Assembly: GCA_000004985.1 (NCBI GenBank)
Contig: GG739235.1
Length of the DNA stretch: 3,081 bases
Reading direction: 5' to 3' (one strand)
DNA from: Naegleria gruberi
Lineage: Eukaryota
Below are positions 1 through 3,081 of this stretch, piece by piece; position 1 is the stretch's first letter; every line of letters begins with the position of its first letter. Made by a program: the position numbers and the translations under genes. Below the pieces are notes generated by a model that did no database searches, was not told the origin of the DNA, and worked only from the letters and a program-made list of their open reading frames with translations.

Positions 1-1500
1 ACATGATATATAATGATATAGAATTCAATTTCATGTCTTAATAATCAGAAATGGTATCATGGGAAGGTAAATGTTGATATTTTATGGTTGACTTTAAGGA
101 AAGACAAGTCACACCAACTCTATCAAATACATCACTTCAACCAACAATATATACATGAAAATGCTTCACTCTACGAGTAGAGATAGAAAATCAAGTTTAT
201 TTTCACTTTCATGTTCATGATTTCAACTCTATCATACCAATTAGTCAACTGTGGACATGGATGAAAATCTGGAAAATGATCACTCTATGCAACTTTACCA
301 TCATGTTATACATCTCAAACAACGTATGTGGATCAATTTTCAGACATTCTGTTGAACATTCCATCTTTCAGTAAGGTAAAGGGTGAAATATCAAGGTTGA
401 CTTTGAAGATCAGGAGGAAATCTTGAATATAGAGAACCAAATCCTCAATCAACAAAATACATATCAATCGATTGGAAATCAATAGTACATCTCGAAAATA
501 TAATTTATTTTATGTTTTGAAATCTCTTCTTGACCTCTTTTAGTCAATTAAGACAATTAAGGATGACACTATAGGAAAAGTTACCAATCTCAAAATAAAT
601 GATAATATCGAGTTCCACATCTCAAATAAAGTGGACTTTCATCAAATTATATAATTTCATTTCAAGAAATACATCCGTTAGATAGTACATGGTGATATTT
701 CAAGGGAATGGCTGGAAATCTGAAGGATATAGAAACAACTCCATTTTCACTGAAATTGATACCATGATATGTAGACACTCTAATTAGCATATAATATCAA
801 TTTCATGAGTATTGGCTCAGTAGATATTGAGTTGTCAACTCTATCATTTTACTATAGAACTTTGACATAAAATCAAAGATTATGCTCCAACTCACTTATT
901 TTATATGCAATTAGTCTAGAACTGATAACACACATTCTGTACACCATGTATATACATCTATACAAGTTTAAAAACAATTCATGATACTTTAATTCAGTCA
1001 ATCAGTAAATGTTCAATGTCAATAGTGATTATATCCAAGTGTACACTCTATCTCAGCGAAAGTACATTCAACCATCATGTAACTTTACCAGATACATTTA
1101 GTCACACTATTATACAACTGGAATCAATTTTAATGTTTTAGAATTGAATTCAATATGATAATAATAACAATCTGTCAAATTGTCATATTTCAACATATAG
1201 AATATACTCCATCTCATTTATTTTTCAAAATATCATACAAGTATCAAATATGAATACACTCTCCTAGATGAGGAGAACAATCTGAGAAAGTTTCACATTC
1301 ATGGCTCAGTATCTTAAATTCCACTAACTTACCTTAGAAGAAAGTTTACGTTCCATATCAGTCATTTCATAGAGTTATTGATCAATTCCAACACCAGTAT
1401 GTTATTCATCCGTTCTAGTACAATTTATGTTTCAAGAGTGATTTCTGTGATAAAGTTGATGGAAGTGAGTGCCAAATGGCACTTTCACTTCCAATATAGT
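1..1500. repeat. Degenerate tandem or satellite-like repeat array, period about 300-320 bp with internal sub-repeats, roughly 5 units; no ORFs.
   Basis: Recurring anchor words at roughly 300-bp spacing. 'aaggtaaa..ggttgacttt' occurs at 65-98 and 374-407, about 30 of 40 positions identical, and a third copy 'ggtgatatttcaagg..ggaaatct' lies at 690-720. 'ttagtcaa' occurs at 241, 541 and about 910. 'acatctcaaa' occurs at 311 and 617. 'caactctatca' occurs at 116, 225 and 834. 'caatttcatg'-like words occur at 25, 333, 651, 798 and 975. 'aactttacca' occurs at 291 and 1081. 'tggctcagta' occurs at 813 and 1302. Copies are only about 60-75% identical and carry indels. Neither strand has an ORF on the track. 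Confidence 0.5.
1461..1492. other. Imperfect hairpin: ggaagtga-gtgcc / ggcac-tt-tcacttcc, 13 paired bases with a 2-nt bulge and a 4-nt loop.
   Basis: Seen directly: ggaagtgagtgccaaatggcactttcacttcc. It sits at the boundary between the repeat array and the unique sequence downstream. Confidence 0.3.
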
Positions 1501-1763: not shown

Positions 1764-2054
1764 TTAATAAATAGGGGTTGACATGGGATCCAAACCCAAC
1801 CTATCGTAACATGAGCAATTATTTGGAGAAAAACAATTTCCATTTCCTGAGCAAATATTAGAATTGGTTGAATTTAAATTAAAACATGTTGGAAATTCAC
1901 ATTTCATTCCAACATAACCTGGAAGGCATTGACAGATATCGAATTGTATACATTTTCCGTTTCCATTGGAACAAACAGCAGATTCATTCGACAGGATATC
2001 GAAACATTTTGTAAATTGGCAAAATTGACCACCATTAGTTGCTACATGGACCAT
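1764..2054 (-). CDS. EGF-like cysteine-rich repeat protein, single exon or fragment (possibly a pseudogene); predicted extracellular.
   Basis: The 96-aa ORF has 17 Cys. Repeat 1 (CSNGNGKC-IQFDI-CQC-LPGYVGMKC-E) matches tenascin/integrin-type EGF spacing C-x-C-x2-G-Y-x-G-x2-C. Repeat 2 (CSGNGNC-FSPNN-CSC-YDRLG) is cut off by the stop before its last Cys. N-x-S/T sequons are present (NES, NST). Codon third positions are A/T-rich like the flanking genome. There is no N-terminal signal peptide, and an in-frame stop lies 2 codons upstream of the Met, so it is probably an exon or fragment rather than a complete gene. Confidence 0.5.
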   Translation of the reverse strand: MVHVATNGGQFCQFTKCFDILSNESAVCSNGNGKCIQFDICQCLPGYVGMKCEFPTCFNLNSTNSNICSGNGNCFSPNNCSCYDRLGLDPMSTPIY

Positions 2055-2376
2055 ACCTCATCATCTACTTGACCAAATCAAAAACTTTCTTCTAGTAGTA
2101 CTATTTATTTTGACAATATATAACATTTTCATTATTACTTTCTTCAATAGCATTGTAATTGTCATGTACAATATCGGAACATCATTCCAATATCATGAAG
2201 ATGCTCCAATGGATGTGTAGAATCATCCCTCCAAGTTTCATCCCTTTAATAACAGTATTTCCTTATCGTCACAATATTTATTATCAAACCAGCACTATTA
2301 CTGACTAGATTCATTTACTTCTAGAGGTATCTCAAATAAATTTAAAACAGTTTCAGATTTTGAAATAGCTTAGTAG

Positions 2377-3000
2377 AGATTTTTCTTTGGTATTAAGCAG
2401 GCCAACCTTAGAAATGCTATCATTGAAACTCAGCGATCCAAGAAAATTATTAATAAGTTGGGCCAATTAGACAATGACTATAATTGGCATAATAGCACTC
2501 TCTCCTTCTGGAGAAACTCTCTCTTGTCTTATTATCAGCAAAGACTCCTCTACTTTAATCTCCACCACTCAATTTTACTAGGTAACGACAGTATTTGTGA
2601 CAAATGTAATGTCAAGGAAGATTGGACCCACGTATTCCAAACTTGTCCCAAATGCAATCCTGAAAAGGATGAACTGTATGCCACATGGGACGCTATCTCC
2701 CAGAAATTTAGCCTTAACAAGATTCGTTTCCCTCCTGATATCTCAGAATCCTCTCAACTTAGGATAGAATTTGATGGTCGTTGCTCCCGTAATGACTGGC
2801 TTAACTGGTCTAAGCGCAAAAGAATACCTAAGAATGTGGCCCTAGAAGTCTACAAAGCACTAGCTATTTATTTGGAAAATTGCTACAAGAACTCAGTGTG
2901 GTACAACCGTCCCAATGCAGGCTTCACTATTAACAGGAAATACCTCTCTGCCTACCACAGGCAGGCTCAGTCTAACCAACCACTTAGCGTCAACCCATAA
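2377..3000 (+). CDS. C-terminal portion of a non-LTR (LINE) retrotransposon ORF2 (pol). It is 5'-truncated. The ORF track reports 2458..3000 from an alternative TTG start.
   Basis: The frame is open from the TAG at 2374-2376 to the TAA at 2998-3000 with no upstream ATG. Position 2458 is TTG, so the 'M' is an ORF-caller artefact. The protein contains ...RLLYFNLHHSILLGNDSICDKCNVKEDWTHVFQTCPKC... . This matches the conserved C-terminal block of jockey/CR1/I-like ORF2s (R-L-R-x-G-H-x-x-L-x-H-x-x-L ... C-x2-C-x3-E-D-x-x-H-x4-C-P), that is, the CX1-3CX7-8HX4C zinc-knuckle. GC content is higher than the host-like ORF and the flanks. Confidence 0.7.
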   Translation, partial: RFFFGIKQANLRNAIIETQRSKKIINKLGQLDNDYNWHNSTLSFWRNSLLSYYQQRLLYFNLHHSILLGNDSICDKCNVKEDWTHVFQTCPKCNPEKDELYATWDAISQKFSLNKIRFPPDISESSQLRIEFDGRCSRNDWLNWSKRKRIPKNVALEVYKALAIYLENCYKNSVWYNRPNAGFTINRKYLSAYHRQAQSNQPLSVNP

Positions 3001-3039
3001 CACTTAAACGCTGAACCGAAACTTACTGGTTGTAGACCT

Positions 3040-3070
3040 CGTCTCTCAGGTCTTTACGATACAAGAGACG
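3040..3070 (+). other. 3' UTR stem-loop of the LINE fragment: 7-bp stem CGTCTCT/AGAGACG with a 17-nt loop, immediately followed by the A-rich run taaaaaatcaa.
   Basis: The inverted repeat cgtctct (3040-3046) and agagacg (3064-3070) is seen directly. Stringent-type LINEs carry a 3'-terminal hairpin recognised by their own RT, upstream of a short A-rich or microsatellite tail. Confidence 0.4.
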
Positions 3071-3081
3071 TAAAAAATCAA

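Follow-up and report, generated by a model that had tools for sequence, protein, structure and literature searches.

A scaffold-end sequence of Naegleria gruberi as a very probable 5'-truncated copy of an APE-type LINE family

Accessories that are typical of particular LINE clades include an RNase H after the reverse transcriptase (RT) in I, LOA, Tad, and Ingi as well as PHD, CCHC, or esterase domains of ORF1 in jockey, I, and CR1, and the Pfam family zf-RVT is typical of plant L1. A helix followed by a zinc knuckle is common to several LINE clades and is not specific to the jockey/CR1/I/R1 groups. LINEs of the stringent type recognize a stem-loop in their 3' UTR, examples being the eel UnaL2/ZfL2 (L2 clade), CR1, and SART1. 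LINEs that target tRNA genes occur in Dictyostelium, and a fossil of the RLE-to-APE transition has been proposed for the Dualen elements. In L1 ORF2p and in R2, a CCHC knuckle sits in almost the same place next to the RT active site, and the domain at the C-terminus (CTD) contacts template RNA or target DNA in the structures of these proteins (PMC10830420, PMC12503042). The 5' truncation of LINE insertions is a common fate (PMC10830420). In Naegleria lovaniensis, LINEs make up 0.25% of the genome (PMC6125883), and our literature search found no description of Naegleria LINE families.

Here, a stretch of 3,081 nucleotides of N. gruberi DNA (contig GG739235.1 of assembly GCA_000004985.1; referred to as the window) was analyzed, which is the complete length of a small NEG-M scaffold. 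Positions 2401-3081 of it are, with high confidence, a copy, truncated at the 5' end and non-autonomous, that belongs to a Naegleria family of non-LTR retrotransposons (LINEs) of the APE type. An earlier note, made from the letters alone, had described an open frame on the plus strand with a CX2CX7HX4C knuckle, and the peptide it quoted, RLLYFNLHHSILLGNDSICDKCNVKEDWTHVFQTCPKC, is indeed found letter for letter in that frame. The frame follows directly on two in-frame stop codons (TAG TAG at 2371-2376) and stays open from 2377 to the TAA at 2998-3000, though over 207 codons and not the 208 residues that had been given; it survived in none of 20,000 mononucleotide shuffles of 2377-3000. The first in-frame start codon in the fragment is a TTG at 2458. 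The element had been taken to begin at 2377, where the frame opens, but the first eight residues of the frame are flank and homology sets in at 2401, so that the distance to the neighboring host-like ORF, put at about 320 bp, amounts to 323 bp when counted from 2377 and to 347 bp when counted from the true start of homology. The fragment was also correctly said to be richer in GC than its surroundings, the GC content being 0.41 in 2401-3000 versus 0.307 in 1-2400. The coordinates of the features are collected in Table 1.

Table 1. Features of the window and the evidence on which each is based
Feature	Position	Strand	Evidence
Exon 1 of NAEGRDRAFT_54910 (67 bases, outside the element)	257..323	+	Exact reconstruction of P0130; probably spurious
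Flank read in frame, open, without homology to the element	2377..2400	+	RFFFGIKQA precedes NLR in the window
LINE ORF2 remnant: last 199 codons (C-terminal domain past the RT thumb) and TAA	2401..3000	+	99% identity to P0001 residues 69-267
Conserved helix motif QQRLLYFNLHHSILL, 5' of the knuckle	2536..2580	+	Q, L, and H columns nearly invariant in the family
CCHC zinc knuckle CDKCNVKEDWTHVFQTC (CX2CX7HX4C) and a further PKC	2596..2655	+	Family alignment
Subdomain after the knuckle (a helix, then short strands and two helices) with the nearly invariant CYKNxxW at its end	2656..2934	+	
3' UTR of the element, ended by the scaffold end	3001..3081	+	Alignment to the L001 and L002 3' UTRs up to window 3077
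3'-UTR hairpin CGTCTCT-CAGGTCTTTACGATACA-AGAGACG	3040..3070	+	Stem conserved; folding energy

The assignment is carried by homology to proteins in which the same domain is part of a complete LINE ORF2. The translation is 99% identical to the N. gruberi protein P0001 (NAEGRDRAFT_75469), whose 90%-identity cluster includes P0129, P0130, and P0131, and the identity to other N. gruberi copies, which are known from gene models, is 95-99%. Two of these models carry an APE-like N-terminus together with the same C-terminus, namely P0028 (NAEGRDRAFT_68513, 856 aa, 95% identical to the window) and P0131 (NAEGRDRAFT_51419, 1920 aa). In two metagenomic proteins that are about 65% identical in the CTD (P0021, 658 aa; P0134, 1117 aa), an RT domain (RVT_1, E ~1e-32) lies in the same uninterrupted chain. 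More distant are P0008 (703 aa) and P0009 (685 aa), which have RVT_1 (E 4e-39 and 2e-37, respectively) upstream of the matched part and are matched by BLASTP over their last ~200 residues (E 5e-35 with 36% identity and E 2e-30, respectively); the similarity to a non-LTR ORF2 C-terminus on which the proposed identity hung was thus found. Proteins of full length (~1150 aa) with an APE endonuclease, an RT, and the same tail are 32-36% identical to the window. In the N. fowleri protein P0020 (FDP41_006562, 1158 aa), Exo_endo_phos occupies residues 9-223 (33 bits, the Pfam cut-off being 24.5 bits), RVT_1 residues 525-766, and the matched domain residues 941-1146, and subthreshold matches to Exo_endo_phos occur at the same position in P0019, P0027, and P0028. 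RVT_1 was found in P0008, P0009, P0019, P0020, P0021, P0023, P0027, and P0134, with the CTD contiguous in each. Because the matched domain follows RVT_1, and in full-length members also APE, in a single chain, the reading of 2401-2997 as the C-terminal ~199 residues of the ORF2 of a Naegleria non-LTR family is supported.

Within the CTD, the knuckle proper (C-x2-C-x7-H-x4-C, at 2596-2646) is followed by an extra x2-C. The knuckle columns C, C, W, H, F, and C do not vary among 12 family sequences; the additional Cys after the knuckle is not conserved. A helix is predicted for the motif 5' of the knuckle, at residues 44-60 of the structural model. An exhaustive profile search gave 16 matches among 1.84 billion representative proteins, and judging from these sequences the ~200-aa domain has so far been seen only in Naegleria-like (heterolobosean) sequences. 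When the CTD profile was run against about 100 other LINE RTs, nothing was matched except for one weak hit to a knuckle. A Pfam search of the 207-aa translation returned no relevant family and no zf-RVT at E <= 10, a sequence search of the PDB with the fragment gave nothing significant, and two metagenome scans, one for CTD relatives and one for the hairpin pattern, were both empty. The profile also weakly matched P0018 (360 aa), which consists of five tandem copies of a 72-aa unit, and P0016 (2041 aa), a bacterial Cna_B repeat protein; these matches to the Cys/Trp-rich part are probably spurious.

The predicted fold of the CTD resembles the C-terminal parts of LINE-1 ORF2p and R2. The six best Foldseek matches are all R2 proteins, at weak E-values of 0.16-2, and this similarity of a modeled fold supports the LINE assignment independently of sequence. 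In a phmmer search of the RT against solved structures, R2 was matched with E 8e-27 and human ORF2p with E 1.6e-11, and the named distant RT matches are a mix of plant L1-like, arthropod, fungal, and fish sequences with comparable E-values. Neither RNase H nor any other Pfam domain was found after the RT in P0019, P0020, P0023, and P0134, and the lack of RNase H and ORF1 accessory domains is compatible with R1, jockey, and CR1. The family is thus assigned at the level of APE-type LINEs, and the narrower 'jockey/CR1/I/R1' is a guess. We weighed the presence of a restriction-like endonuclease (RLE) active site downstream of the knuckle and discarded it, as the PD...D/E positions are not conserved in the intact members P0019, P0020, and P0023: 'PD' and the acidic residues after the knuckle are present in the window's subfamily and replaced in the intact full-length members, so that such a site is not a family feature. 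We consider it doubtful that the post-knuckle subdomain (with its three short strands and 'PPD...IEFDG') is a degenerate remnant of an R2-type RLE fold in an APE-bearing LINE, perhaps now recognizing the 3' hairpin together with the knuckle; if this were true, 2656-2934 would be a structural fossil of the RLE-to-APE transition.

The 5' end of the copy was located by comparison with its relatives. The statement that no RT core lies upstream holds, as tblastn of 26 family proteins and three ORF1s against the window gave matches only from 2401-2410 onward and no ORF1, APE, or RT similarity in 1-2400. The truncation junction lies at about 2399-2403. P0001, P0028, and P0021 read through this break with ...HKPV(S/Q)(N/D)(L/I)R..., and the sequence of the relatives running across it is ...HKPVSNLRNAII.... 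Three DNA copies (the window, L001, and L002) were compared and found to share their 3' end and to vary at the 5' end: in element coordinates, the start of L001 (found in sequencing run SRR26902778) lies ~190 bp further 3', beside an unrelated gene, and L002, like P0021 and P0028, continues through both truncation points. This variable 5' truncation with a shared 3' end supports the reading as a LINE fragment. A target-site duplication (TSD) was sought for L001 and not found, the longest shared word being 7 bp; the 3' flank of the window copy lies beyond the scaffold end at 3081, and the TSD evidence comes from a relative in N. fowleri (see below). The fragment cannot transpose by itself, and in this sense the word 'dead' in the earlier note is right, but it is not decayed, as about one residue in 199 differs from other copies and the frame is intact. 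The truncated copies differ from one another by 0-3 residues, and the intact frame reflects youth, not host function.

Downstream of the stop codon, the window can be aligned to the L001 and L002 3' UTRs as far as 3077, and judged by this alignment the scaffold probably ends a few bases short of the element terminus. The hairpin is the best conserved stretch within 3001-3081: the window, L001, and L002, which are otherwise ~69% identical, have the stem GTCTCT/AGAGAC without a difference, and this stem, being invariant among the three, offers no covariation. It folds with -11.2 kcal/mol (z -2.57), and three of 200 shuffles fold as well. The distant subfamily member L005 has a different hairpin in a similar place (z -3.9), and the 3' UTR of the N. 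fowleri element holds no comparable hairpin. Copies L001, L004, and L005 end in ...ACTACA(C), after which a T-rich flank begins, and a poly(A) tail was not seen in L001-L005. By analogy with LINEs that lack poly(A), the hairpin may take part in recognizing the template.

An apparently intact full-length element was found at 4783-9541 of L003 (N. fowleri VFQX01000052.1), where an exact 20-bp direct repeat, ATTTTTTGGAATTGGAAATT, flanks it at 4763-4782 and 9542-9561. Such a repeat is not expected by chance between two 180-bp windows, and it is the TSD of the element, which has neither terminal repeats nor a poly(A) tail. The ORF1 stop overlaps the ORF2 start as TAATG in L003 and as ATGA in L004. 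The full-length element is thus ~4.8 kb long and consists of a coiled-coil ORF1, an ORF2 with APE, RT, thumb, and the ~200-aa CCHC-containing CTD, and a short 3' UTR without poly(A). The ORF1s of L003, L004, and L006 match no Pfam family and give only weak matches to coiled coils.

Some further observations were made on these elements. The neighbors of the L003 element are a synaptobrevin gene on one side and a peptidase M16 gene on the other, and the called ORF1 of the element (4797-5840) seems to go on in another frame to 6000. In the ORF1 of the window's subfamily (L006 122-1696; P0131 residues ~950-1010), an RRM-like stretch, YKRRFRVLLxGFP...VAFxYF, can be discerned by eye ahead of the coiled coil, and Pfam reports no RRM there. 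In L004, a tRNA-Gln gene (minus strand) and an apparent tRNA-like sequence that was not called by ARAGORN (at 4720-4810 and 5006-5078) are located downstream of a full-length family member, within 400 bp of its 3' end, which is a single case.

These elements suggest how the window copy may have arisen. Target-primed reverse transcription, starting at a nick that the APE had cut, would have copied the element RNA into the genome, as indicated indirectly by the 20-bp TSD of the relative. The enzyme would recognize its own RNA through the 3'-UTR hairpin and the terminal motif and not through poly(A), and the CCHC knuckle of the CTD would handle single-stranded nucleic acid beside the RT active site, as the similarity in fold to LINE-1 ORF2p and R2 suggests. 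Because homology is lost abruptly at 2401, the point at which reverse transcription stopped or at which the cDNA was joined presumably lies ~680 nt from the 3' end, so that only the CTD-coding part and the 3' UTR were inserted.

The sequence upstream of the copy is poor in recognizable features. Positions 1-1760 contain no ORF >49 aa in any frame, have a GC content of 31%, and carry weak short repeats. N. gruberi has a gene-dense genome, for which this region is unusually non-coding, and it fits a repeat-rich unplaced scaffold. Scans of the whole window for tandem and dispersed repeats gave only short and weak ones, Rfam gave chance-level matches only, and tRNA genes were not found in the window. 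A minus-strand ORF at 1764-2054 (96 aa, beginning at 2054) contains an EGF_2 domain (E 1e-5, 26.2 bits, cut-off 22.1) and shares 35% identity with the EGF repeats that P0131 has in its host part; possibly the ORF is an exon standing alone or a fragment of a pseudogene. Moreover, ~160 bp of the window (2043-2198) are 69% identical, in reverse orientation, to positions 5274-5426 of L006, a metagenomic Naegleria-like contig (E 8e-16 in a pairwise search). Its place in the window is just upstream of the LINE, and in L006 it comes downstream of a LINE that is interrupted; it could be another repeat.

Three other accounts of the locus have to be weighed against a 5'-truncated LINE copy. The least probable pair concerns a host function. 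Public annotation asserts a gene here, NAEGRDRAFT_54910, the one model retrieved for this scaffold, and thereby just the kind of zinc-finger host gene with an upstream exon that would make the knuckle unrelated to LINEs: join(257..323, 2582..3000), with GTATGT...CTAG boundaries, reproduces P0130 (EFC35442.1, 161 aa) residue for residue, including the Gly that sets the window apart from P0001. With a model in GenBank/RefSeq, GT...AG boundaries at the 'intron' (324-2581, 2258 bp), and an intact frame, the fragment could be read as exon 2 (2582-3000) of a genuine small zinc-knuckle protein. However, this exon would start partway through a domain that runs without a break in all relatives, and homology reaches 181 bp upstream of the proposed acceptor, to 2401. 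Exon 1 is without a homologue, its N-terminus occurring in none of the family matches, and the 'intron' contains the EGF-like ORF on the other strand. The same sequence recurs in at least five gene models in varied contexts, in some of them fused to APE and ORF1. Naegleria introns are, moreover, reported in the genome paper to be mostly short (our literature search found no figure for Naegleria intron lengths). The evidence thus contradicts the annotation; a genuine host gene is extremely improbable, and NAEGRDRAFT_54910 is most likely an artefact of gene prediction. Just as hard to credit is a domesticated CTD fragment that selection maintains, independently of transposition, in the role of a host protein or a regulatory RNA. 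It is true that several truncated copies (P0001, P0129, and P0130) have all 199 codons in an intact frame, but 0-3 residue differences are the look of recent insertions without selection, neither a start codon nor evidence of a promoter was found (the TTG mentioned above being the first in-frame start), and truncation points that vary do not fit a fixed gene structure.

Somewhat less remote, but still unlikely, is that the sequence is a LINE fragment whose break at 2401 came about after insertion, through a deletion or the nested insertion of a repeat, or through a chimeric join in the assembly. The scaffold is tiny and ends inside a repeat, 1-1760 is AT-rich without a longer ORF, and L006 contains a related LINE with an interruption inside the CTD, after which comes AT-rich sequence that includes the stretch matching window 2043-2198. 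The two loci are not collinear, however, as this stretch lies 202 bp from the LINE in the window versus 616 bp in L006 and has its orientation relative to the LINE reversed, and the loci have no further significant match in common. Positions 1-2400 contain no LINE sequence, and LINE insertions are commonly truncated at the 5' end (PMC10830420). The interpretation as a 5'-truncated LINE insertion, which the earlier note had proposed, is by comparison backed by four independent lines, namely homology, the TSD of a relative, variable 5' ends, and similarity in fold.

A consequence concerns the annotation of the N. gruberi genome. At least five 'predicted proteins' (NAEGRDRAFT_54910, NAEGRDRAFT_75469, NAEGRDRAFT_46033, NAEGRDRAFT_51419, and NAEGRDRAFT_68513) are pieces or chimeras of a single young LINE family and should be masked and not counted as genes. 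P0131 and P0028 are chimeric or edited models: in P0131, LINE ORF1 and ORF2 are joined to a host protein with EGF repeats, and both models skip the RT core, at different points, which suggests frameshifts or stops in these copies or spurious introns. The APE-type family is apparently still or was recently active across Naegleria, including the pathogen N. fowleri, and has a lineage-specific CTD and a conserved 3' hairpin; the analysis gives a first outline of it. For the scaffold itself, a repeat has now been named; in other respects the fragment is a routine piece of a transposon.

Compared with described systems, the Naegleria family combines traits of several. The tRNA-Gln neighbor in L004 recalls the LINEs of Dictyostelium that target tRNA genes, in one case only. 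Like the stringent-type LINEs, the family is without poly(A) and has a short conserved hairpin near the 3' end, which is a putative binding site for ORF2p, as well as a terminal ACTACA(C) motif that is common to distant subfamilies; it differs in showing no terminal microsatellite repeat. Human LINE-1 uses a poly(A) tail, whereas none is present in any copy of the Naegleria family, and its ORF2p is a weaker RT match by phmmer than R2; the arrangement of a wrist and a CTD with a CCHC knuckle in ORF2p (PDB 9hdo, 8c8j) is nevertheless similar in the fold of the CTD. The zf-RVT of plant L1 is absent from the Naegleria CTD. R2 (R2Bm and R2Tg; PDB 8gh6, 8ibw, 9dou) is built as linker, zinc knuckle, and RLE without an APE, whereas the Naegleria family has an N-terminal APE, and no specificity for rDNA targets as in R2 was seen. 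From APE-type LINEs in general, the family differs in its ~200-aa CTD, which occurs in Naegleria-like sequences only. With them it shares the domain order, a TSD without terminal repeats, the overlap between the ORF1 stop and the ORF2 start, variable 5' truncation, and the CX2CX7HX4C knuckle after the RT.
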